DNA of 34,605 nt, taken from IMG/VR virus record IMGVR_UViG_2690316131_000023, one strand, 5' to 3'. The position numbers and the translations under genes were made by a program. The notes under the pieces are model-generated. The model did no database searches. It had not been told where the DNA came from and saw only the letters and a program-made list of their open reading frames with translations. This DNA comes from a virus (taxonomy: Duplodnaviria > Heunggongvirae > Uroviricota > Caudoviricetes). This document shows, in pieces, positions 706 to 29,862 of the stretch. Each line of letters starts with the position of its first letter. Positions within the stretch are counted from its first letter, which is position 1.

Positions 706-1004
706 CAAGGGCAGTGCGTATCCATCAATTAAAAATTGCACCTAAGTATTTCAACGCTGTGGTTGCAGGTCAAAAGACGGCTGAACTTCGTAAAGACGAT
801 CGTGGCTATAAAGTTGGTGATGTTCTTTCTCTTTGCGAATGGAAGCATGCTGTATTTACGGGTAGGGAATGGGCCGCTGTTATCTCTCATGTGCTTCCGG
901 CTAATGACGTCATGGCAGTTTCAGAAAAATGGGTGATGCTATCAATTCGCCCATTAACCCCATTAGAAGCTTTAGGATATGTTATTGCAGGAGGTGCTGT
1001 ATGA
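702..1004 (+). CDS. hypothetical protein, possibly DUF3850/ASCH-like
   Basis: ORF 642-1004; internal ATG at 702 preceded by GGAGGTGCTGT, the same RBS context as the next gene; sits in an operon with dam. Domain call is recollection only. Confidence 0.4.
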
Positions 1005-1858
1005 GCACCATCCTGAAATGGGCGGGAAATAAAACCGCCATTATGTTCGAACTGAAAAAACACCTTCCTGCTGGCCCGCGACTGGTTGAACCTTTCGCGG
1101 GTTCCTGTGCTGTGATGATGGAGACGGATTACCCCAGCTATCTGGTTGCGGATATTAATCCTGATTTAATCAACCTCTATAAAAAGGTTGCCGCTGATTG
1201 TGAATCGTTTATATCTCGCGCCAGAGCTTTATTTGAGGAAGCAAACAGGGAGGTGGCTTATTACAACATAAGGCAGGAGTTTAATTACTCCACTGAAATT
1301 ACTGATTTCATGAAAGCGGTATATTTCCTGTATCTCAATCGTCATGGTTACCGTGGATTATGTCGCTATAACAAGAGCGGGCATTTCAACATTCCGTACG
1401 GTAATTATAAAAATCCGTATTTCCCTGAAAAAGAAATTCGCGCATTTGCAGAGAAAGCCCAGCGTGCAACGTTTATCTGCGCAAGCTTTGATGAAACGCT
1501 GGCGATGCTGCAGGTGGGGGATGTGGTGTATTGCGATCCGCCGTATGACGGTACGTTTTCCGGCTATCACACTGATGGTTTCACTGAAGATGACCAGTAT
1601 CACCTGGCATCCGTTCTTGAACATCGGTCATCAGAAGGACATCCGGTCATTGTTTCTAACAGTGATACATCCCTGATCCGTTCGCTGTATCGCAATTTTA
1701 CTCACCACTACATCAAGGCAAAACGCAGCATCGGTGTAGCAGCTGGTGAGAGTAAATCTTCAACAGAAATCATCGCTGTTTCCGGGCCGCGCTGCTGGGT
1801 GGGATTTGATCCTTCGCGTGGCGTGGATAGTTCTGCCGTGTACGGAGTGCGTGCATGA
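1001..1858 (+). CDS. dam: DNA adenine methyltransferase (Dam-like, N6-adenine)
   Basis: N-terminal ILKWAGNK and FAGSCAV (SAM-binding) plus the DPPY catalytic motif (VYCDPPYDG); start at the internal ATG 1001 with GGAGG RBS. Confidence 0.85.
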
Positions 1859-4269
1859 GCCATGCTGATATGAACAACTGCAGCGGCTTTAACGAGGTCG
1901 CCGCAGCATTCTCATGGAACAGCCCGAAAAAGGCCATTAACCCTTATCTGGACCCGGCGGAAGTTGCGCCGGTTTCTGTGCTTTCAAACCTGATCACTCT
2001 GTACGCTACCGATAACGAGCAGGAACAACTGCGCCGCGAGGCTCTGAGTGATCAGGTATGGGAGCGTTATTTCTTTAATGAATCACGTGATCCTGTCCAG
2101 CGCGAAATGGAGCAGGATAAGCTCATTAGCCGGGCAAAGCTGGCGCATGAGCAGCAGCGTTTTAATCCGGGCATGGTCATCCTGGCGGACGTTAACGCCC
2201 AGCCTTCCCATATCAGCAAGCCGCTGATGCAACGTATTGAATACTTCAGCAGCCTGGGCAGGCCAAAGGCTTATTCCCGCTATTTGCGTGAGACGATTAA
2301 GCCATGTCTGGAACGACTGGAGCATGTACGCGACAGTCAGCTATCCACTTCTTTTCGCTTTATGGCAAGCCATGAAGGGCTGGACGGTCTGCTGATCCTG
2401 CCTGAAATGAGTCAGGATCAGGTGAAACGCCTGTCCACCCTGGTAGCTGCGCATATGAGCATGTGCCTTGATGCCGCTTGTGGCGATTTGTATGCCACCG
2501 ATGACGTTAAGCCAGAAGAAATCCGCAAGACATGGGAAAAGGTGGCGGCGGAAACCCTGCGACTGGATGTCATACCACCTGCGTTTGAGCAACTCCGCCG
2601 GAAAAGAAACCGCCGTAAACCCGTGCCCTATGAACTCATTCCGGGGTCGCTGGCGCGTATGCTGTGCGCCGACTGGTGGTATCGGAAATTGTGGAAGATG
2701 CGTTGCGAATGGCGGGAAGAGCAGTTGCGTGCTGTTTGCCTGGTCAGCAAAAAAGCATCTCCCTATGTCAGCTATGAAGCCGTGATGCATAAACGTGAGC
2801 AGCGCCGTAAGTCGCTGGAGTTTTTCCGTTCTCATGAACTGGTGAACGAAGACGGCGACACGCTGGACATGGAGGATGTGGTAAACGCCAGCAGCAGCAA
2901 CCCTGCGCATCGCCGCAATGAGATGATGGCCTGTGTTAAAGGTCTGGAGCTTATCGCGGAAATGCGCGGTGACTGCGCCGTTTTCTACACCATCACCTGT
3001 CCGTCACGTTTCCATTCCACGCTAAATAACGGCAGGCCCAACCCGACCTGGACAAATGCGACGGTAAGACAAAGCAGTGATTATCTGGTCGGCATGTTTG
3101 CTGCATTTCGTAAGGCGATGCACAAAGCCGGGTTGCGCTGGTATGGCGTGCGGGTGGCTGAGCCGCATCATGACGGCACAGTTCACTGGCACCTGTTGTG
3201 TTTCATGCGCAAAAAAGACCGCCGCGCCATTACTGCATTGTTGCGTAAGTTTGCTATCCGTGAAGACCGCGAGGAGCTGGGTAATAACACGGGGCCACGC
3301 TTTAAGTCTGAGCTGATAAACCCGCGCAAAGGAACGCCGACTAGCTACATCGCGAAATACATCAGTAAGAACATTGACGGGCGTGGTCTGGCTGGCGAGA
3401 TCAGCAAGGAAACGGGTAAATCTCTGCGTGATAACGCTGAATACGTTAATGCCTGGGCGTCTCTGCATCGTGTTCAGCAATTCCGCTTCTTTGGCATTCC
3501 GGGGCGTCAGGCTTACCGTGAACTGCGATTGCTGGCTGGTCAGGCGGCAAGGCAACAGGGTGACAAAAAAGCAGGTGCGCCGGTACTGGATAACCCGCGC
3601 CTTGATGCCATTCTGGCTGCAGCTGATGCTGGTTGTTTTGCCACCTACATCATGAAGCAGGGCGGCGTACTGGTTCCCCGTAAATATCACCTCATCAGAA
3701 CCGCTTATGAAATCAACGAAGAGCCGACCGCCTATGGCGATCACGGCATTCGTATTTATGGCATCTGGTCACCCATTGCAGAGGGCAAAATCTGCACTCA
3801 TGCCGTGAAGTGGAAAATGGTTCGTAAGGCCGTTGACGTTCAGGAGGCGGCAGCCGACCAGGGCGCTTGCGCCCCTTGGACTCGTGGCAATAACTGTCCC
3901 CTTGCTGAAAATTTGAACCAACAGGAGAAAGATAAATCAGCTGATGGGGACACCAGAACGGATATTACCCGCATGGATGACAAGGAGTTGCACGATTATC
4001 TGCATAGTATGAGCAAAAAAGAGCGCCGGGAACTGGCAGCAAGGTTACGCCTGGTTAAGCCGAAACGGCGTAAAGACTACAAACAGCGAATTACAGATCA
4101 TCAGCGACAGCAGCTCGTCTATGAACTGAAGTCCAGAGGATTTGATGGCAGCGAGAAAGAGGTCGATTTACTCCTTCGCGGTGGCAGTATTCCGTCAGGA
4201 GCAGGCCTGCGTATCTTCTATCGGAACCAGCGTTTGCAGGAAGATGATAAGTGGAGAAACCTGTATTAA
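1855..4269 (+). CDS. A: P2 gpA-like rolling-circle replication initiator (replication endonuclease)
   Basis: 804 aa; HWHLL histidine motif and YIAKYISK tyrosine motif typical of P2/186 A proteins; canonical position. Confidence 0.9.
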
Positions 4270-4338
4270 TTACGCGGGTTAACAATTCGTGCTCTTAATA
4301 ATACCAGGCATATCAGGCTGATGAACGTAAAAAAACGT

Positions 4339-4381
4339 TTTACATCAGTAAGATTATTATATACTGTAAATATAAACAGTG
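4339..4381 (+). promoter_or_regulatory. candidate SOS promoter: -35 TTTACA (4339-4344), -10-like TACTGT overlapping a LexA box TACTGTaaatataaACAGTG (4362-4381)
   Basis: CTGT-N8-ACAG at 4364-4379 matches the LexA box consensus; it is part of a perfect 14-bp inverted repeat (4362-4375 / 4383-4396), about 40 bp upstream of ORF 4422. Confidence 0.55.
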
Positions 4382-4421
4382 GTTATATTTACAGTATTGC
4401 TTTGGTGTCATAGGAGGAAAG

Positions 4422-4610
4422 ATGCAGGACTATTTTTTGGAGTCTTTGAAGCTCCAGCGCATTGATTTTTTTCTTAAGCTTGTAGCGGCTAGTGAGTGTA
4501 GTGATGAAGAGAAGGGGCTGGCTCTGCAGTGGGTTTCTGAACTGACAGATGAACTCATGGCAAAAATCAGAACCCACGAATACAACCGCTCAATGGATGT
4601 CATCAGCTGA
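4422..4610 (+). CDS. small hypothetical protein (62 aa), first gene of the LexA-controlled pair; possibly the N-terminal part of a Tum-like antirepressor
   Basis: Strong RBS AGGAGG (4412-4417) then ATG 4422; overlaps the following DinI-like ORF in another frame. Confidence 0.45.
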   Translation: MQDYFLESLKLQRIDFFLKLVAASECSDEEKGLALQWVSELTDELMAKIRTHEYNRSMDVIS

Positions 4611-4620
4611 GGTGACTTTT

Positions 4621-4854
4621 ATGCGCATTGAAATAATGATCGATAAAGAGCAGAAGATTAGCCAGTCTACACTGGACGCCCTTGAATCCGAGCTTTACCG
4701 CAATCTGCGCCCCCTGTATCCCAAAACGGTAATTCGTATTCGCAAAGGTAGCTCTAACGGTGTGGAACTGACCGGACTGCAACTGGACGAAGAAAGAAAA
4801 CAAGTGATGAAAATTATGCAGAAGGTGTGGGAAGACGACAGCTGGCTGCATTAA
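4621..4854 (+). CDS. DinI-family protein (DinI/MsgA-like, 77 aa)
   Basis: MRIEIMIDK...LESELYRNLRPLYP...MKIMQKVWEDDSWL aligns by eye with E. coli DinI (MRIEVTIAK...ILQETWESADDW); start taken at internal ATG 4621. Confidence 0.75.
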   Translation: MRIEIMIDKEQKISQSTLDALESELYRNLRPLYPKTVIRIRKGSSNGVELTGLQLDEERKQVMKIMQKVWEDDSWLH

Positions 4855-4989
4855 GAAACGTTGCTGGCGTCTGAACTTGTTTCTGGCGTCAGCAAGGTTG
4901 AACAACGAGCCCTTGCGAGGCGTTAGCTCTGTAGTGCATGTCTATGCCGCATGAGATCGCATGATCGTTTGAGGATCGTTTTTGCTAAG

Positions 4990-5014
4990 GCCCGCCAGAA
5001 CTGGCGGGCTTTTG
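4990..5014 (+). terminator. rho-independent terminator (GCCCGCCAG-AA-CTGGCGGGC then TTTTG)
   Basis: Perfect 8-9 bp GC-rich stem at 4991-5008 followed by a T-run; downstream of the dinI-like gene. Confidence 0.55.
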
Positions 5015-5057
5015 CGTAGATCATGCACCTGCATGAAAACCACTACATAAAGCGGGC

Positions 5058-5076
5058 AGGCGTGGCGGGGATACGA
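5058..5076. other. candidate cos (cohesive end) site, 186/P2-like
   Basis: GGCGTGGCGGGGA at 5058-5070 matches my recollection of the first 13 nt of the 186 cohesive end (GGCGTGGCGGGGAAAGCAT; P2 GGCGAGGCGGGGAAAGCAC), followed by GCGCGCGCT. Confidence 0.5.
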
Positions 5077-5129
5077 GCGCGCGCTATCACGTAAAATAGG
5101 CAAAATACTTCTGGAAAACAGAAAGTTGA

Positions 5130-7076
<1,947 letters not shown>

Positions 7077-21483: not shown

Positions 21484-21904
21484 GCCATTCAATATCTGGA
21501 GCACTGGAGGTATCAACCAGTTCCAGTGCGTCCAGATAATCCAGCCACAAATTATATTGCGCCAGTTCCTCACCTTTCAGACGACCAATAGCCGCTTTAC
21601 CGGGCCATTGTTTACTGTTCATGTATTCGTTGACCTGGTTAATCAATTGCTGCTTTTTCAATTCGGCTGCGGCAATCTGTTCCTCATGTGTTGGTGGTGG
21701 AATATCTGCCCATGATGGCATTCCATCTTCACCAACGCACCTGTATTTTCCTTCTGGTGCTGGTTTAAGTGCAAATTCTTCGAAAACAGAATATTTAACG
21801 GGTTTTGCATCTGCTGGAAAAGAATTAGATTTAATATATTCTTGTTTCAAATGCTCAGGGTAAAATGCATTATTTATAGAGCTGTAGTATATTATGCTCG
21901 ACAT
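21455..21904 (-). CDS. alternative tail fibre assembly chaperone (Tfa2), reverse orientation
   Basis: 149 aa, convergent with Tfa1; C-terminal LWLDYLDAL...DIEWPTPP Tfa motif; identical copy on the plus strand at 22293-22742. Confidence 0.75.
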   Translation of the reverse strand: MSSIIYYSSINNAFYPEHLKQEYIKSNSFPADAKPVKYSVFEEFALKPAPEGKYRCVGEDGMPSWADIPPPTHEEQIAAAELKKQQLINQVNEYMNSKQWPGKAAIGRLKGEELAQYNLWLDYLDALELVDTSSAPDIEWPTPPAVQAR

Positions 21905-21907
21905 TTT

Positions 21908-21933
21908 ATAATCCTTATATTGGTTTGGGAGAA
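21908..21933 (+). other. hybrid (pseudo) crossover site: ATAATCCTTATA TT GGTTTGGGAGAA
   Basis: Right half-site identical to the hixL right half-site; left half is non-consensus arm sequence; lies at the left arm/core junction. Confidence 0.45.
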
Positions 21934-22272
21934 GCGGCCAAATTGCCTGCGATTAGTGGCTCTTTATCATCATCTGGCTGGATAAAAATCCCTGTTATAG
22001 AGGGGAAGTCTTTTATTATCCAATGGGGAAGAATCGGACCTTCTGATAGTAAAACTGGTGTTGCAACAGGAAGTTATCCTATTGCTTTTCCAAATTCTGC
22101 ATTTATGGCATTTATTGCTGAAAAAACCGCAGTATCCACAGGCCCAATAGGTATTAATTCCTGGGGAGTGTCCGAACTAACAAAAACAGAATTAAAGGCC
22201 ATTTGTGCTGCAAGGACTATATCAACTTCAGCCGCAACTGAAACAGGTGATTTTCTGGTACTGGGATATTGA
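21925..22272 (+). CDS. promoterless alternative tail-fibre C-terminal cassette (Hv2, about 115 codons), unique core of the palindrome
   Basis: Frame opens on the same GLGE junction residues as Hv1 in H, directly after the hybrid site; followed 20 bp later by Tfa2 in the same orientation. Confidence 0.5.
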   Translation: MGEAAKLPAISGSLSSSGWIKIPVIEGKSFIIQWGRIGPSDSKTGVATGSYPIAFPNSAFMAFIAEKTAVSTGPIGINSWGVSELTKTELKAICAARTISTSAATETGDFLVLGY

Positions 22273-22292
22273 GCTTCCATAAGGATTATAAA

Positions 22293-22742
22293 ATGTCGAG
22301 CATAATATACTACAGCTCTATAAATAATGCATTTTACCCTGAGCATTTGAAACAAGAATATATTAAATCTAATTCTTTTCCAGCAGATGCAAAACCCGTT
22401 AAATATTCTGTTTTCGAAGAATTTGCACTTAAACCAGCACCAGAAGGAAAATACAGGTGCGTTGGTGAAGATGGAATGCCATCATGGGCAGATATTCCAC
22501 CACCAACACATGAGGAACAGATTGCCGCAGCCGAATTGAAAAAGCAGCAATTGATTAACCAGGTCAACGAATACATGAACAGTAAACAATGGCCCGGTAA
22601 AGCGGCTATTGGTCGTCTGAAAGGTGAGGAACTGGCGCAATATAATTTGTGGCTGGATTATCTGGACGCACTGGAACTGGTTGATACCTCCAGTGCTCCA
22701 GATATTGAATGGCCTACGCCTCCGGCAGTTCAGGCCAGATGA
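22293..22742 (+). CDS. tail fibre assembly chaperone Tfa2 (second, forward copy; cognate to Hv2)
   Basis: Identical to the 21455-21904 minus-strand protein; start at ATG 22293. Confidence 0.75.
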   Translation: MSSIIYYSSINNAFYPEHLKQEYIKSNSFPADAKPVKYSVFEEFALKPAPEGKYRCVGEDGMPSWADIPPPTHEEQIAAAELKKQQLINQVNEYMNSKQWPGKAAIGRLKGEELAQYNLWLDYLDALELVDTSSAPDIEWPTPPAVQAR

Positions 22743-23316
22743 CATCCGGCGCGGTGCTGGTATCTGTTGCCGTCACCGCGTCAATGTAATCCAGCACGGC
22801 GTTAAGTCGGGTGTTTTCTGTCTGCGTCAGCTTCCGCCCGGCCTGTAATTTCAGTTGAATCAGACTGATAGAAGCCATTGCAGCATCAATCAGCGACTGG
22901 CGCTGTGCTTCTGCCGCTTCTACTGCGGCGCTATGCTGTGCCTCAGTATCGGTCACCCATTTCTCACCATCCCATTTATCGTATGGCGTTAACGGTGCGA
23001 GAGTGGTTGTTTTTTCGGGATAGTCGCCTGGTGCTGTGATTTCTTTGGCATCTCCCGTTTCGGTGTTATAGACAATTTCACCGCGATGGTCTGGCACATA
23101 TTCCCATGAGTTAAAATCTGCTGAGCGGCAGATAGCATAACCAGCTTTATGTGTAACTGGCGCATCTAAACAAGAACATGCCGGGATACCGACGCCAACA
23201 GCAAGATATTCAGTTGATGTAGAAATATATTCCCGCGTTTCACCATCATAATTATAAACGGTAATATCTCCCGCCTTTGTGGCGATGAGTTCCTTATTTA
23301 ATATAGCTTTCTCCAT
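22714..23316 (-). CDS. tail fibre assembly chaperone Tfa1 (second, inverted copy)
   Basis: Translation identical to 20881-21483. Confidence 0.8.
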   Translation of the reverse strand: MEKAILNKELIATKAGDITVYNYDGETREYISTSTEYLAVGVGIPACSCLDAPVTHKAGYAICRSADFNSWEYVPDHRGEIVYNTETGDAKEITAPGDYPEKTTTLAPLTPYDKWDGEKWVTDTEAQHSAAVEAAEAQRQSLIDAAMASISLIQLKLQAGRKLTQTENTRLNAVLDYIDAVTATDTSTAPDVIWPELPEA

Positions 23317-23827
23317 CAGGCAGCCCTCACGATATAATTAAAGGCAATGTTACGGGGTCGATTTTCGTTTGCAGTTGGAACAATTCTTGAAGCATCAAGG
23401 CCAATCACTTTTGGGTAAACAGCGCCGTCTGCTCTTTCTGTCACCATACTTCTGGTTAAGGAGAAATAACTATTGTTTGTAGAGGGACTCAATGGCACTA
23501 TGGCCCCCTTAAACGAGCCTGCTGTTTCCCATATTGAATAATTTTCAGTGTTTACAGTTCTGAACTCACCATAGATATTACGTATGGCATCGCCCTGAGC
23601 TGATAATATTGCCCTCCCCGTATCCATACCACGTCCGTCATCCCAGCCACGAATAAACTCACCACGTAAATCAGGCAATTTATTTGTCGGGTAAGCCTTT
23701 GCCAGTTCCGGGTATTCTTCAGCAGAAAATGCTGCACCGTTGCATTTCAGCCAGCCTGTTGGCGGAGTGGCGGAAGGCCACGGAACAGGCACACCAACGG
23801 GTAATGCCGAACCTTCTCCCAAACCAA
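23316..23827 (-). other. promoterless inverted copy of the Hv1 tail-fibre tip cassette (silent in this orientation)
   Basis: Translation identical to the H C-terminus from GLGEGS onward; ends at the hixR crossover. Confidence 0.6.
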
Positions 23828-23839
23828 CGTTTAAGAAAA
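23814..23839 (-). other. hixR/gixR-like crossover site: TTCTCCCAAACC AA CGTTTAAGAAAA (inverted relative to hixL)
   Basis: Left half identical to the reverse complement of the hixL right half-site; about 55 bp upstream of the invertase gene. Confidence 0.6.
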
Positions 23840-23894
23840 TGCAGCGATTACGACTAACTGGCATCATCCCCGGTTTTTATTCAGGGGATTGATC

Positions 23895-24461
23895 ATGCTT
23901 ATTGGCTATGTACGCGTGTCAACAAATGACCAGAACACCGATTTGCAACGTAATGCACTGAACTGCGCGGGATGTGAGCGGATTTTTGAGGACAAAATCA
24001 GTGGCACTAAGTCCGACAGACCGGGGCTTAAAAAACTGCTCAGGACACTATCGGCAGGTGACACACTGGTTGTCTGGAAGCTGGACAGGTTGGGGCGCAG
24101 TATGCGGCATCTCGTTACGCTGATAGAAGATCTGCGCCAGCGTGGCGTGAATTTCCGAAGCCTGACTGACAGTATTGATACCAGTACCTCAATGGGCCGT
24201 TTCTTTTTTCATGTCATGGGGGCCCTGGCTGAAATGGAACGCGAACTGATAGTTGAACGTACCAGGGCAGGGCTGGCTGCAGCTCGCGCCAAAGGCAGAG
24301 TAGGTGGACGCCGTCCTAAGTTGACTACCGAACAGTGGGCACAGATTGGACGTTTACTCGAGGCCGGAGAATCAAGACAGCGTATTGCACTGATTTTTGA
24401 TGTGGGCGTTTCTACCATTTATAGAAAATTTCCGGCGAATGAGAACAATGAATCGCCCTGA
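23895..24461 (+). CDS. serine site-specific DNA invertase (Gin/Hin/Pin/Cin family)
   Basis: MLIGYVRVSTNDQNTDLQRNAL...VVWKLDRLGRSM...GRRPK is close to Mu Gin as I recall it; catalytic-serine YVRVST motif; C-terminal HTH; start taken at ATG 23895. Confidence 0.9.
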   Translation: MLIGYVRVSTNDQNTDLQRNALNCAGCERIFEDKISGTKSDRPGLKKLLRTLSAGDTLVVWKLDRLGRSMRHLVTLIEDLRQRGVNFRSLTDSIDTSTSMGRFFFHVMGALAEMERELIVERTRAGLAAARAKGRVGGRRPKLTTEQWAQIGRLLEAGESRQRIALIFDVGVSTIYRKFPANENNESP

Positions 24462-24509
24462 GTCAGCATTATTTTGATTTTTCCTGTAAGCGGACAAATA
24501 CCGTTATTT

Positions 24510-24527
24510 TGTGTGAATAACGACACA
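24510..24527 (+). promoter_or_regulatory. candidate Ogr-dependent late promoter element (TGT-N12-ACA) upstream of FI
   Basis: TGTgtgaataacgacACA, centre about 85 bp upstream of the FI ATG. Confidence 0.4.
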
Positions 24528-24603
24528 ACTGCGCTTAGCTGTTTGTCAGGCACAATCACTTCAACATAGGGCGAAGCCTAATCCAATCAGGAGGTTCGCC
24601 ACT

Positions 24604-25776
24604 ATGGCTCAGGATTACCACCACGGAGTGCGCGTTGTTGAAGTCAACGAAGGCACCCGATCCATTACCACGGTGAGCACCGCCATCGTGGGTATGGTCT
24701 GCACGGGCGATGATGCCGATGCAAAAATGTTTCCTCTTAATAAACCCGTGCTGATCACTGATGTGCTGACTGCCAGCGGTAAAGCGGGTGAGTCCGGTAC
24801 GCTGGCCCGTTCGCTGGACGCCATCGCTGACCAGGCAAAACCCGTGACCGTTGTTGTGCGTGTGCCGCAGGGTGAAACGGAAGAAGAAACCACGACCAAT
24901 ATCATCGGAGCAGTGACCGCTGAAGGTAAAAAAACAGGCATGAAAGCCCTGTTATCTGCCCAGTCACAGCTCGGCGTTAAACCGCGCATTCTCGGCGTGC
25001 CAGGTCACGATAACAAAGCCGTTGCTACTGAGTTGCTGAGTGTGGCGCAAAGCCTGCGTGGGTTTGCTTACCTGTCAGCGTATGGCTGCAAGACGGTGCA
25101 GGAGGCGATCACTTACCGTGAAAACTTCAGCCAGCGCGAAGGAATGCTGATCTGGCCCGACTTTACTGGCTGGGACACGGTGCTGAATGCCGAAGCAACG
25201 GCATATGCCACCGCCCGTGCGCTTGGTCTGCGCGCAAAAATTGACGAGCAGACCGGATGGCACAAAAGCCTGTCCAATGTGGGCGTTAACGGTGTCACCG
25301 GAATTTCTGCTGATGTGTTCTGGGATCTGCAGGACACGGCAACCGATGCTGGACTGCTGAACCAGAACGACGTCACCACCCTTATCCGCAAAGACGGTTT
25401 CCGCTTCTGGGGTTCCCGCTGCCTGAGTGATGACCCGCTCTTTGCCTTCGAAAACTACACCCGCACGGCGCAGGTGCTGATGGACACGATGGCAGAAGCA
25501 CACATGTGGGCGGTGGATAAACCGCTTAACCCGTCGCTGGCCCGGGACATTATCGAAGGTATCCGCGCCAAAATGCGCAGCCTGGTCAGTCAGGGCTATC
25601 TCATTGGTGGCGATTGCTGGCTGGATGAGTCGGTGAACGACAAAGACACTCTGAAAGCCGGAAAACTCACCATCGATTACGACTACACGCCAGTGCCACC
25701 ACTTGAAAACCTGATGCTGCGTCAGCGCATCACCGATCAGTACCTGGTGAATTTCGCCAGCCAGGTCAGCGCGTAA
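24604..25776 (+). CDS. FI: P2 gpFI-like tail sheath protein
   Basis: 390 aa; GGAGG RBS; position. Confidence 0.9.
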
Positions 25777-25785
25777 GGGGACAAC

Positions 25786-26301
25786 ATGGCTTTACCACGT
25801 AAATTAAAACACCTGAACCTGTTTAACGACGGGAATAACTGGCAGGGGATCGTTGAGTCGCTGACGCTGCCGAAATTCACCCGCAAATATGAGAAGTATC
25901 GCGGCGGCGGAATGCCGGGTGCAGTGGATGTGGATCTGGGGCTTGATGACAGTGCGCTGGACACAGAATTTTCCATTGGTGGTACTGAACTGCTGCTGTT
26001 TAAACAGATGGGCAAAGCCACGGTGGATGGCATCCAGTTGCGCTTTACCGGCTCTATCCAGCGTGATGATACCGGGGAAGTGCAGGCCGTGGAGCTTGTG
26101 GTGCGTGGACGTCACAAAGAAGTGGATTCCGGCGAGTGGAAGACGGGCGAAAGCAACACCACCAAAGTGACCAGTACCAACAGCTACGCGAAGCTGACTA
26201 TCAATGGTGAGGTGCTCTATGAAGTGGACCTTATCAACATGGTGGAAATTGTGGACGGTGTGGACTTGATGGAAGCGCACCGCAACGCCCTCGGCCTCTG
26301 A
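25786..26301 (+). CDS. FII: P2 gpFII-like tail tube protein
   Basis: 171 aa; position after the sheath gene. Confidence 0.9.
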   Translation: MALPRKLKHLNLFNDGNNWQGIVESLTLPKFTRKYEKYRGGGMPGAVDVDLGLDDSALDTEFSIGGTELLLFKQMGKATVDGIQLRFTGSIQRDDTGEVQAVELVVRGRHKEVDSGEWKTGESNTTKVTSTNSYAKLTINGEVLYEVDLINMVEIVDGVDLMEAHRNALGL

Positions 26302-26355
26302 TGTATCTGAACGGCGCGGAATGCCGCGCCAGAACCCAATTTACAGGACAGCAAA

Positions 26356-26658
26356 ATGAGCGATAAGCAGACTGAAAAGACCATTCTACTGGATACCCCC
26401 ATCATGCGTGGTAAAACAGAAATTACCGAAATTGTGCTGCGTAAACCGCAGTCCGGTGCGCTGCGCGGTACACGCCTGCAGGCCATTATGGATATGGATG
26501 TGAACGCGATGATGACCGTGATCCCCCGCATCTCCAGCCCGGCGCTGACTGCACAGGAAATTGCAGAGATGGACCCGGCAGATCTCACTGCCATGTCGGT
26601 TGAGGTTGTCACTTTTTTGTTGAAGAAGTCGGTGCTTGCCGGTTTACCGACAGCCTGA
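26356..26658 (+). CDS. E: P2 gpE-like tail assembly chaperone
   Basis: 100 aa; position between tube and tape measure. Confidence 0.8.
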   Translation: MSDKQTEKTILLDTPIMRGKTEITEIVLRKPQSGALRGTRLQAIMDMDVNAMMTVIPRISSPALTAQEIAEMDPADLTAMSVEVVTFLLKKSVLAGLPTA

Positions 26659-26792
26659 CGGTTGACGATCTGGTGGCAGATATCGCCACCATTTTTCACT
26701 GGCCGCCATCCGTTACTGACGTTATGCCGCTGACCGAAGTGCTGGAATGGCGGTATAAAGCGATTCAGAGAAGCGGGGCTAACGATGAGTGA
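26356..26792 (+). CDS. E+E' tail chaperone extension via programmed -1 frameshift at slippery T TTT TTG (26613-26619)
   Basis: Six-T run plus G near the 3' end of E; the -1 frame stays open to TGA 26790-26792, overlapping the start of T. Confidence 0.55.
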
Positions 26793-29700
26793 TAATAACC
26801 TGCGCCTGCAGGTCATTCTTAATGCGGTTGACAAACTCACCCGCCCATTCCGTGCTGCACAGGCCAGTTCGAAAGAGCTGGCTGGCGCAATTCAGAATAC
26901 CCGAAACAGCCTCAAAGAATTGAATAAGCAGGCTGGCAGAATTGATGAATTTCGCAAGACGCGCTCGCAACTAGCCATAACAGCCAACAACCTGAACGCA
27001 GCCCGCGAAGAGGCGGCAAAACTCGCCACACAATTTGCTGCCACTAACAGGCCAACCGCCGCGCAGGCAAAGTTATTCAGTCAGGCCAAAACACGAGTAC
27101 AGGAACTTCAGCAGACCTATAACGGCTTGTTGGGGGCGGTCCAGAGACAACGTCAGGCACTTAAAGAATCAGGGATTGATACCAGACAACTCAGTAGTGC
27201 CCAGCGAGAACTTAAGAAAAATGCTGAAGAAACAAGGCAGGCACTGGAGGGCCAGCAAAAAGCACTTAAACGTCTGGGTGAGCAACAGGCACGGATGAAC
27301 GCTGCCAGAGAACAATACTCAAGACGGCTTGAAGTGCGCGATCGCATCGCAGGAGCCGGAGCCACTACCACGGCTGCAGGGCTGGCAATGGGTGCGCCAG
27401 TGATGGCGGCAGTAAAAAGCTATACCAGCATGGAAGATGCCATGAAAGGTGTGGCAAAGCAGGTCAATGGTCTGCGTGACGATAATGGCAACCGCACTGC
27501 ACGTTTTTATGAAATGCAGGATGCCATCAAGGCTGCCAGCGAACAGTTGCCGATGGAAAACGGTGCGGTGGACTTCGCTGCACTGGTTGAAGGTGGTGCG
27601 CGCATGAACGTCGCAAACCCTGACGACAGTTGGGAAGACCAGAAACGTGACCTGCTGGCCTTCGCCAGTACGGCAGCAAAGGCGGCAACAGCCTTTGAGC
27701 TGCCAGCGGATGAACTGTCAGAAAGTCTGGGGAAAATCGCCCAGCTCTACAAAATACCTACCCGCAATATTGAACAGCTCGGCGATGCGCTGAACTATCT
27801 GGATGATAACGCCATGTCGAAAGGGGCGGACATCATTGATGTGATGCAACGTCTGGGCGGTGTGGCTGACCGTCTGGATTATCGTAAAGCGGCGGCACTG
27901 GGTTCCACCTTTCTGACACTGGGTGCTGCGCCGGAGGTTGCAGCCAGTGCAGCAAACGCGATGGTGCGTGAATTGTCCATTGCCACCATGCAAAGCAAGA
28001 GTTTCTTTGAAGGGATGAATCTGCTGAAACTCAATCCTGAAGTGATTGAAAAGCAGATGACGAAGGATGCGATGGGAACTATCCAGCGTGTGCTGGAGAA
28101 GGTGAACGCACTGCCGCAGGACAAGCGTCTGTCTGCCATGACCATGTTGTTTGGTAAAGAGTTTGGTGATGATGCAGCGAAACTGGCGAACAACCTTCCG
28201 GAACTGCAGCGCCAGCTAAAACTGACAGCGGGCAATGATGCGCTCGGTTCCATGCAGAAAGAATCCGACATCAACAAAGACTCACTTTCCGCTCAGTGGT
28301 TGCTGGTCAAAACCGGAGCGCAGAACACCTTCAGCAGCCTGGGCGAAACGCTGCGCCAGCCGCTGATGGATATTCTGTACACGGTGAAAAGCATTACGGG
28401 GGCGTTGCGCCGCTGGGTGGAAGCTAACCCGGAACTGACAGGCACACTGATGAAAGTAGCGGCTGTTGTGGCTGCGGTTACCGTAGGCCTCGGCACCTTA
28501 GCGGTGGCGCTGGCTGCAGTGCTGGGGCCGCTGGCAGTGATCCGTCTGGGATTCTCTGTGCTGGGTATCAAAACGTTACCTTCCGTTACGGCAGCAGTAA
28601 CTCGAACCAGCAACGCGTTGTCCTGGCTGGCTGGCGCTCCACTGGCACTGCTGCGACGCGGGCTTGCTTCATCGGGCAACGCCGCAGGTTTACTTACTGC
28701 GCCGTTGTCGTCTTTGCGCCGCACGGCATCACTGACGGGAAATGTCCTGAAAACTGTAGCAGGTGCGCCAGTTGCACTTTTGCGGTCTGGATTATCCGGT
28801 TTACGTGCTGTTGCTGTGATGTTTATGAATCCTCTGGCGGTACTGCGCGGTGGACTGGCCGCCGCAGGCTCGGTGCTGCGAGTACTGGCATCTGGTCCAC
28901 TGGCGATGCTGCGCGTTGCCCTGTATGCCGTATCTGGTCTGTTAGGTGCTCTGCTCAGTCCGATAGGTCTTGTGGTTACTGCACTGGCGGGCGTGGCGCT
29001 GGTTGTCTGGAAATACTGGCAACCCATCACCGCATTTCTCGGTGGCGTGGTGGAAGGATTCAAAGCGGCGGCAGGTTCCGTCAGTGAAGCATTCGAACCG
29101 CTTAAGCCCGTGTTCCAGTGGATTGGCGACAAAGTACAGGCGCTGTGGGACTGGTTTACTGATCTGCTGACGCCTGTTAAGTCGACCTCTGCCGAACTGC
29201 AGAGTGCAGCGGCAATGGGGCGACGATTCGGGGAGGCACTGGCGGAAGGGCTGAATATGGTCATGCATCCGCTGGACTCCCTGAAATCCGGCGTTTCCTG
29301 GTTGCTTGATAAACTCGGCATTGTCAGTAAAGAGGCTGCAAAGGCGAAACTGCCGGAAAGCGTGACGCGTCAGCAACCTGCGACGGTGAATGCAGACGGT
29401 AAAGTGATGATGCCATCGGGTGGTTTTCCGTCATGGGGATATGGCTTTGCGGGGATGTATGACAGCGGCGGCTATATCCCGCGCGGGCAGTTCGGCATTG
29501 TCGGTGAAAACGGGCCTGAAATTGTCAACGGTCCGGCAAACGTGACCAGCCGGAGAAATACAGCTGCACTGGCTGCGGTTGTCGCCGGAATGATGGGCGT
29601 TGCTGCCGCGCCAGCAGAGCTTCCACCGTTACATCCTTTGGCGCTTCCCGCGAAAGGCGGCGAAGCGATGGTGAGTCGCGCAGCTACAGTGCCGCCCGTT

Positions 29701-29862
29701 CACCGGATTGAGGCACCGACGCAGATCATCATCCAGACGCAGCCAGGACAAAGTGCGCAGGATATTGCGCGGGAGGTGGCACGCCAGCTTGATGAACGTG
29801 AACGCAGGCTGAAGGCAAAAGCCAGGAGTAACTACAGCGATCAGGGGGGATACGACGCATGA
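26785..29862 (+). CDS. T: P2 gpT-like tail tape measure protein
   Basis: 1025 aa; N-terminal coiled-coil-like region and C-terminal Ala/Gly/Leu-rich repeats; position. Confidence 0.85.
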   Translation: MSDNNLRLQVILNAVDKLTRPFRAAQASSKELAGAIQNTRNSLKELNKQAGRIDEFRKTRSQLAITANNLNAAREEAAKLATQFAATNRPTAAQAKLFSQAKTRVQELQQTYNGLLGAVQRQRQALKESGIDTRQLSSAQRELKKNAEETRQALEGQQKALKRLGEQQARMNAAREQYSRRLEVRDRIAGAGATTTAAGLAMGAPVMAAVKSYTSMEDAMKGVAKQVNGLRDDNGNRTARFYEMQDAIKAASEQLPMENGAVDFAALVEGGARMNVANPDDSWEDQKRDLLAFASTAAKAATAFELPADELSESLGKIAQLYKIPTRNIEQLGDALNYLDDNAMSKGADIIDVMQRLGGVADRLDYRKAAALGSTFLTLGAAPEVAASAANAMVRELSIATMQSKSFFEGMNLLKLNPEVIEKQMTKDAMGTIQRVLEKVNALPQDKRLSAMTMLFGKEFGDDAAKLANNLPELQRQLKLTAGNDALGSMQKESDINKDSLSAQWLLVKTGAQNTFSSLGETLRQPLMDILYTVKSITGALRRWVEANPELTGTLMKVAAVVAAVTVGLGTLAVALAAVLGPLAVIRLGFSVLGIKTLPSVTAAVTRTSNALSWLAGAPLALLRRGLASSGNAAGLLTAPLSSLRRTASLTGNVLKTVAGAPVALLRSGLSGLRAVAVMFMNPLAVLRGGLAAAGSVLRVLASGPLAMLRVALYAVSGLLGALLSPIGLVVTALAGVALVVWKYWQPITAFLGGVVEGFKAAAGSVSEAFEPLKPVFQWIGDKVQALWDWFTDLLTPVKSTSAELQSAAAMGRRFGEALAEGLNMVMHPLDSLKSGVSWLLDKLGIVSKEAAKAKLPESVTRQQPATVNADGKVMMPSGGFPSWGYGFAGMYDSGGYIPRGQFGIVGENGPEIVNGPANVTSRRNTAALAAVVAGMMGVAAAPAELPPLHPLALPAKGGEAMVSRAATVPPVHRIEAPTQIIIQTQPGQSAQDIAREVARQLDERERRLKAKARSNYSDQGGYDA

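Follow-up and report, generated by a model that had tools for sequence, protein, structure and literature searches.

A very probable two-state tail-fibre switch of the Mu G-segment type in a P2-like E. coli prophage, recorded as a palindrome across a one-base scaffold join

The window, the whole stretch of 34,605 nucleotides analysed here, consists mostly of a P2-like E. coli prophage, in which genes for gpA, portal, terminase, V, W, J, I, H, sheath, tube, tape measure and D can be recognized. The contractile tail is represented by V, W, J, I, H, FI and FII. The right end of the window is made up of E. coli chromosomal genes; an Asp-Al_Ex/TrkA_C permease gene and YbjM occupy 31986-34318, which places the prophage boundary at about 31.5-31.9 kb. 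Several further genes are carried by the element. A Dam-like D12 orphan methyltransferase is encoded upstream of gpA at 929-1858 (+). The 646-aa reverse transcriptase at 5136-7076 (+) (PADLOC RT-Toprim_I-C, 2.4e-217; Pfam RVT_1) looks like retron type I-C defence cargo, with the gpA/DinI genes on one side and the portal gene on the other; an Rfam scan of positions 4200-5400, upstream of the reverse transcriptase, gave no match to a retron msr/msd. An FRG-domain protein (Pfam, 2e-19; PADLOC candidate system PDC-S15, 8.8e-32) is encoded at 15877-16812 (-), on the opposite strand and flanked by tail gene S and baseplate gene V. Since a DUF2971 gene is found in the same slot of the relative L025, the S-V slot can be regarded as a variable cargo position.

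The locus of interest extends from the tail-fibre gene H to a gene for a serine DNA invertase, and the coordinates of its features are displayed in Table 1. The gene H consists of a constant part, Hc, and a tip, which in the window is Hv1; this arrangement is termed state A. H with Hv1 has 519 aa, and the exact protein is listed in 124 blocks of public assemblies. A second tip, Hv2, comprises 116 codons, of which the open reading frame at 21925-22272 covers 115 aa from a TTG. Each tip has a chaperone gene, Tfa1 and Tfa2, respectively. The two chaperones share 34% identity, only across the C-terminal 80 residues. Tfa1 and Tfa2 are convergent, and their 3' ends overlap by 29 bp (window 21455-21483 and 22714-22742), so that conserved C-terminal codons lie on opposite strands of the same DNA.

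Table 1. Positions of the features of the tail-fibre locus within the window
Feature	Position	Strand	Evidence or remark
Hc, constant part of tail-fibre gene H up to the crossover	19322..20369	+	Pfam Phage_tail_fib N-terminal domain, 3.6e-65
X-left crossover site, inside H: TTCTCACATACC-TT-GGTTTGGGAGAA	20358..20383	+	gix-like half-sites
Hv1 tip (Collar domain), fused to Hc here (state A)	20370..20881	+	Pfam Collar, 1.2e-14
Tfa1, chaperone cognate to Hv1	20881..21483	+	Caudo_TAP, 5.6e-32
Tfa2 copy, end of left-hand (state A) contig	21455..21904	-	redundant with 22293-22742
Scaffold join	21919	.	'A' in window, 'N' in public record CYDD01000029.1
Hv2 alternative tip: core TTGGTTTGGGAGAAG and gp53-like C-terminal domain	21920..22272	+	Pfam Gp53-like_C, 1.9e-9
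Tfa2, chaperone cognate to Hv2, 149 aa	22293..22742	+	Caudo_TAP, 1.5e-35
Tfa1 copy, right-hand (state B) contig	22714..23316	-	perfect inverted copy of 20881-21483
Hv1 copy, silent position of state B	23316..23827	-	gene callers' ORF reaches 23867
X-right crossover site: TTTTCTTAAACG-TT-GGTTTGGGAGAA on the reverse complement	23814..23839	-	inverted relative to X-left
Gin-type serine DNA invertase, 188 aa, Ser9 present	23895..24461	+	Resolvase 2.4e-52 and HTH_7 1.5e-15

An earlier note, made from the sequence alone, had described Hv2 as a silent alternative tip that possesses neither a start codon nor a ribosome-binding site. The latter part of this description was borne out: the sole 'start' is the TTG within the crossover core TTGGTTTGGGAGAAG, and no Shine-Dalgarno sequence is present upstream. 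Also, the GLGE frame entry said to be common to H and Hv2 is real, as the 15-mer encodes (L)GLGE at both 20370-20384 and 21920-21934, each time in frame with the downstream tip. The distinct Tfa gene does follow Hv2 after 20 nt in the same orientation (Hv2 stop at 22272, Tfa2 ATG at 22293), and its ATG is preceded by an AAGGA ribosome-binding site. The fibre similarity anticipated for the 115-aa segment was found, both as the Gp53-like_C domain and as matches to the extreme C-termini of phrog_4209 and phrog_2557, one annotated as a tail fibre protein and the other as a virion structural protein. A sequence search of Hv2 against solved structures gave no match at E <= 1, and tblastn against deposited phage genomes gave only distant matches (34-42% identity). 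Going by these sequence matches, the Hv2 tip is known from prophages and not from isolated phages.

The invertase shares 76% identity with Mu Gin, including the conserved MLIGYVRVS(9)T, and matches the Gin structure 3UJ3 in the PDB at 6e-91. The two crossover sites, X-left and X-right, are 26 bp each, with 12-bp half-sites and a central TT common to both; the half-sites resemble the Mu gix halves TTATCCAAAACC and TTCCTGTAAACC as read from phage Mu (NC_000929). The first 260 nt of the invertase gene are identical to Mu gin at 177/260 positions. A scan with the Fis consensus gave 60 matches, one of them at 23965-23979, versus 73 expected in shuffled sequence; this is fewer than chance, and neither a recombinational enhancer, expected in the 5' part of the invertase gene, nor Fis sites were demonstrated by the consensus scan.

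At face value, the order of genes in the window is Hc; Hv1, Tfa1, Tfa2(-); Hv2; Tfa2, Tfa1(-), Hv1(-); invertase. A perfect inverted repeat of 1549 bp, 20370-21918 versus 22279-23827 with zero mismatches, surrounds a 360-bp core, which is Hv2, and duplicates Hv1 and Tfa1 as well as Tfa2. The crossover core is present in 3 copies, two of them direct (20370 and 21920) and one inverted (23827). Taken literally, such an arrangement implies that no single inversion could fuse Hv2 to Hc. The copy at 21920 has the outer half ATAATCCTTATA, which is not gix-like.

Comparison with relatives revealed a different and simpler layout. Matches to the region occur in 3463 of 5426 complete E. coli genomes, at a median of 2 places in each, but none of these genomes has a single place that covers at least 80% of its 5.1 kb; even the best matches extend over only about 3.55 kb, compared to 5.15 kb. 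In L001 and L002 the order is H (Hc-Hv1), Tfa1, Tfa2(-), Hv2(-), invertase. The exact 519-aa H was read on 24 contigs, and 4/4 of the place types shown were canonical, one of them broken by IS1; in these contigs the invertase lies 1.55 kb nearer to H than it does in the window. All other contigs read with the identical H gene follow the canonical layout, in which Hc-Hv1, Tfa1, Tfa2(-) and Hv2(-) precede the invertase. In all close relatives Tfa2 is immediately 3' of Hv2, and the gene matching the minus-strand Tfa2 copy of the window runs directly into Hv2(-) in canonical genomes. The cassettes Hv1-Tfa1 and Hv2-Tfa2 thus converge, each tip with its own chaperone (order from L001, L002, L023-L025 and L029).

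The identical Hc is joined to Hv1 in some genomes and to Hv2 in others. State A is found in L023-L026, and state B in L028, L029 (plus 6 similar places) and L031. In state-B genomes Tfa1 and Hv1 are inverted and lie next to the invertase; the 183-aa open reading frame of the silent Hv1 copy adjoins the invertase in L028, L029 and L031 as it does in the window. The predicted fusion of 19322-20369 with 21920-22272 (466 aa) proved 100% identical in other genomes with the same prophage. Called genes of L028 and L029 and a reading frame of L004 encode exactly this protein, with Tfa2 directly downstream and no frameshift, and it carries the domains Phage_tail_fib and Gp53-like_C. A further candidate for the H-Hv2 fusion, H62, was set aside as a degraded, IS-ridden element. 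With fibre similarity found, the fusion present in other genomes and Tfa2 directly behind it, the view of Hv2 and Tfa2 as a swappable tip with its cognate chaperone is upheld. As for the junction from 20370 to 21922 that the earlier note had proposed, an H-Hv2 junction does exist, but its route is an inversion of the 1908-bp segment, presumably by the Gin-like invertase, and not a join between direct repeats. Silence of Hv2, in turn, is state-dependent, since the right-hand contig from 21920 comes from a state in which Hv2 is expressed and Hv1 silent.

The same IS1 insertion in Tfa1 (window 20978-20987) is found in L026 and in L028, and yet these are in opposite states, which shows inversion within a lineage. 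The IS1 lies at 7722-8419 in L026 and at 6714-7411 in L028, and the two isolates have adjacent accession numbers. It probably disables Tfa1, the Hv1 chaperone, while the segment still inverts. Additionally, junctions of both states were found inside the single assemblies L030 and L004.

The origin of the palindrome can be seen from the source record. Look-up of the exact 183-aa silent-Hv1 open reading frame gave ten contigs, of which L030 has the palindromic gene order of the window. L030 (GCA_001284925.1, CYDD01000029.1) equals window 17316-29867 (12,552 bp) but for an n at 21919, where it reads ...CCTTAT n TTGGTTTGGGAGAAG...; the letters of the window contain no N. Therefore, the N was rendered as A. 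In the window the sequence across this point is ...CCTTAT-x-TTGGTTTGGG..., x being base 21919. By BLAST against L001, the window is collinear with state A up to 21918 and with state B from 21920, and 21919 fits neither. The left piece is Hc-Hv1-Tfa1-Tfa2(-) of state A, and the right piece is Hv2-Tfa2-Tfa1(-)-Hv1(-)-invertase of state B. Base 21919 is the only novel junction, and the rest agrees with canonical layouts. An 81-nt junction sequence had a spanning megablast match in 0/5426 complete E. coli genomes, and an exact 35-mer of the junction was absent from IMG/VR, GTDB species genomes and JGI metagenomes. L031, a contig of an independent assembly, ends at window base 21920, the start of the right-hand piece.

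Because the sole non-canonical junction is a one-N join in the source record, the palindrome, the plus orientation of Hv2 relative to H and the second Tfa2 are properties of the scaffold and not of the genome. The second Tfa2 copy reported earlier on the minus strand at 21455-21904 is thus present and identical, but its orphan layout is a product of the one-N join. One convention of the scaffolder SSPACE is to insert a single N where an overlap between two contigs is predicted but none is detected; a literature statement that scaffolders write one N for an expected but missing contig overlap was not found. One observation counts against the scaffold explanation: the left contig stops at CCTTAT (21918), 360 bp before the end of the segment.

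Similar difficulties are seen in other records. The IMG/VR prophage L004 (IMGVR_UViG_2698536450_000021), which is 100% identical, is redundant in another way. At its position 7008, a state-B piece (Hc-Hv2-Tfa2-part of Tfa1) is followed by a single N and then by a state-A piece that begins anew midway through Hc, so that part of H and the entire invertible segment are duplicated by the join. The 1878-bp 'plasmid' NZ_CP148330.1 (L021) of a RefSeq complete E. coli genome holds only Hv2, Tfa2, Tfa1 and Hv1, circularised; this circle is most likely an assembly artefact and less likely an excised deletion circle. Assemblers evidently struggle with the locus when the sequenced DNA holds both orientations.

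Both states, the exact fusion protein, the N join and the canonical layout of other genomes were directly observed. From these it can be concluded that this P2-like E. coli prophage very probably carries a two-state tail-fibre switch of the Mu G-segment type, and that the window joins a state-A contig to a state-B contig. The features of such a switch that were found are an adjacent serine invertase, inverted gix-like sites, a site within the fibre reading frame, convergent cassettes of tip and chaperone, and the occurrence of both orientations in nature. Features of a multi-site system are absent, as the third core has no gix-like outer half, an N lies between, and only two distinct tips occur in the window.

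According to this two-state model, one 1908-bp segment with the two convergent cassettes, Hv1-Tfa1 and Hv2-Tfa2, would lie between two inverted 26-bp sites, one within H at the L-G-L-G-E codons and the other just upstream of the Gin-like invertase gene. Inversion would trade the last 170 codons of H (Collar tip, 519 aa) for 116 (gp53-like tip, 466 aa), and would place the cognate chaperone gene behind the fibre gene and into the late transcript. The unfused tip, having no promoter or start codon of its own, would be silent. By analogy with Gin, the exchange would be catalysed by the adjacent invertase, and the inversion would be expected to depend on Fis and an enhancer. The receptor bound by the phage would likely change, and with it a host-range effect may be expected. 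The real genome would contain one copy of each gene, the palindrome having come from a one-N contig join with the N written as A.

A variant of the scaffold explanation would draw the two halves from two resident prophage copies fixed in opposite states, a double lysogen, rather than from one prophage that flips. The Hc-Hv1 and Hv1(-)-invertase junctions found in the assembly are impossible in one canonical molecule, which means that the sequenced DNA held both states or, less likely, two prophage copies. These junctions would be explained equally well by two copies, and several matches to the region are often found per E. coli genome, as the median of 2 places indicates. However, the double lysogen is less parsimonious, and the halves agree base for base across 1549 bp. 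The IS1-marked pair L026/L028 shows that the segment flips within a lineage, and for loci of this kind a mixed population is the documented rule (PMC4272514). The double lysogen is very unlikely to be the correct account.

The alternative that the palindrome is real would require an inverted duplication of Hv1-Tfa1-Tfa2 and a three-site system (20370, 21920 and 23827), in which Hv2 reaches H by an X1-X3 inversion followed by an X1-X2 inversion. The window as given does contain no N, its three 15-bp core copies are oriented as this two-step path needs, and three inverted repeats with four variants are on record for a P2-like prophage (PMC4272514). Against these points, the sole novel junction is an N in the source record, the middle site has no gix-like outer half and reads ATAATCCTTATA, and the arms are undiverged over 1549 bp. 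Moreover, the junction occurs in no other collection searched, and the other contigs read with the identical H gene are all canonical. A perfect inverted repeat of 1.5 kb is also not resolvable by short reads. A real palindrome is therefore extremely unlikely. An invertase acting at a quasi-site in the Hv2-Tfa2 spacer was considered as the origin of 21918-21920 and rejected, as the outer half is not gix-like, an extra base would be needed and that base is N. A fold-back or template-switch origin of a real palindrome became superfluous once the N was found at 21919.

In principle, the single N at 21919 could mark a genuine junction with an ambiguously called base. The N would then hide a 1.55-kb perfect inverted duplication around Hv2, which might stem from aberrant repair of an invertase-cleaved site, and the locus would be a three-site switch; this is scarcely credible. 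If the duplication were real, Hv2 would be expressed only after two ordered inversions. Next to no probability attaches to Hv2-Tfa2 as a permanently silent direct cassette that is switched on when the DNA between the direct repeats at 20370 and 21920 is deleted. A direct 15-bp repeat does occur, and deletion between its copies would yield the exact canonical state-B sequence, but the direct arrangement exists only across the N join, invertases of the Gin/Hin family use inverted sites and disfavour deletion, and state-B genomes retain the inverted Tfa1 and Hv1 as inversion predicts and deletion does not, with none seen that had lost Hv1 and Tfa1.

The two-state switch inferred for this prophage has the same gene logic as the Mu G segment with Gin (Sc, Sv-U / U'-S'v, gin), that is, a constant fibre part, two convergent cassettes of tip and chaperone, and an invertase gene immediately downstream. 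The invertases are 76% identical and the crossover half-sites are alike. Unlike Mu, the present locus has a P2-like backbone, a segment of 1.9 kb compared to about 3 kb, and shorter tips of 170 (Collar) and 116 codons (gp53-like C-terminal). The P segment of e14 with PinE, the C segment of P1 with Cin, and Min of p15B likewise exchange the C-terminus of a fibre by means of an invertase from this family, all on backbones other than that of this phage. Of these, e14 is a defective lambdoid element, and p15B Min differs in having six sites and many isomers.

Close parallels come from the EPEC strain E2348/69, in which invertible loci in mixed orientation were reported in two P2-like prophages (Goldberg et al. 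2014, PMC4272514). Like the present locus, they combine a P2-like prophage, an adjacent invertase and alternative fibre C-termini (PMC4272514). Both orientations coexist in one culture of that strain, as detected from sequencing reads (PMC4272514). At one locus of that strain, three inverted repeats are combined with three alternative C-termini (PMC4272514), compared to two sites and two tips here; the likeness is one of organization.

The entire invertible segment recurs at 99.6-99.8% identity in L027, L006 and L007 (about 1.9 kb each) with different flanks. In L027 the context is a Mu-like prophage (gp45-gp48 baseplate genes) with another constant fibre part and another invertase gene. The Hv2-Tfa2-Tfa1-Hv1 cassette thus appears to move between unrelated phage backbones, and its presence in a Mu-like prophage is consistent with the known horizontal exchange of fibre modules. 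Two distant IMG/VR relatives, L009 (5622-7685) and L010 (6001-7649), appear to have multi-tip forms of the switch, akin to Min or a shufflon: two or three Hv2-like tips lie there in both orientations beside an invertase of 85-87% identity.

The switch itself is already known: it is textbook material in Mu, P1 and e14, examples from P2-like prophages of E. coli have been published, and the exact cassette is already annotated in many genomes. Little is therefore added to the biology by this locus. Its meaning lies rather in how such loci are recorded: invertible segments in mixed orientation give rise to redundant contigs, one-N scaffold joins and spurious small circular 'plasmids', and an N rewritten as a base lends them the false look of an exotic palindromic multi-site system. 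In scans for odd repeat architectures around invertases, the source records should be inspected for Ns first.
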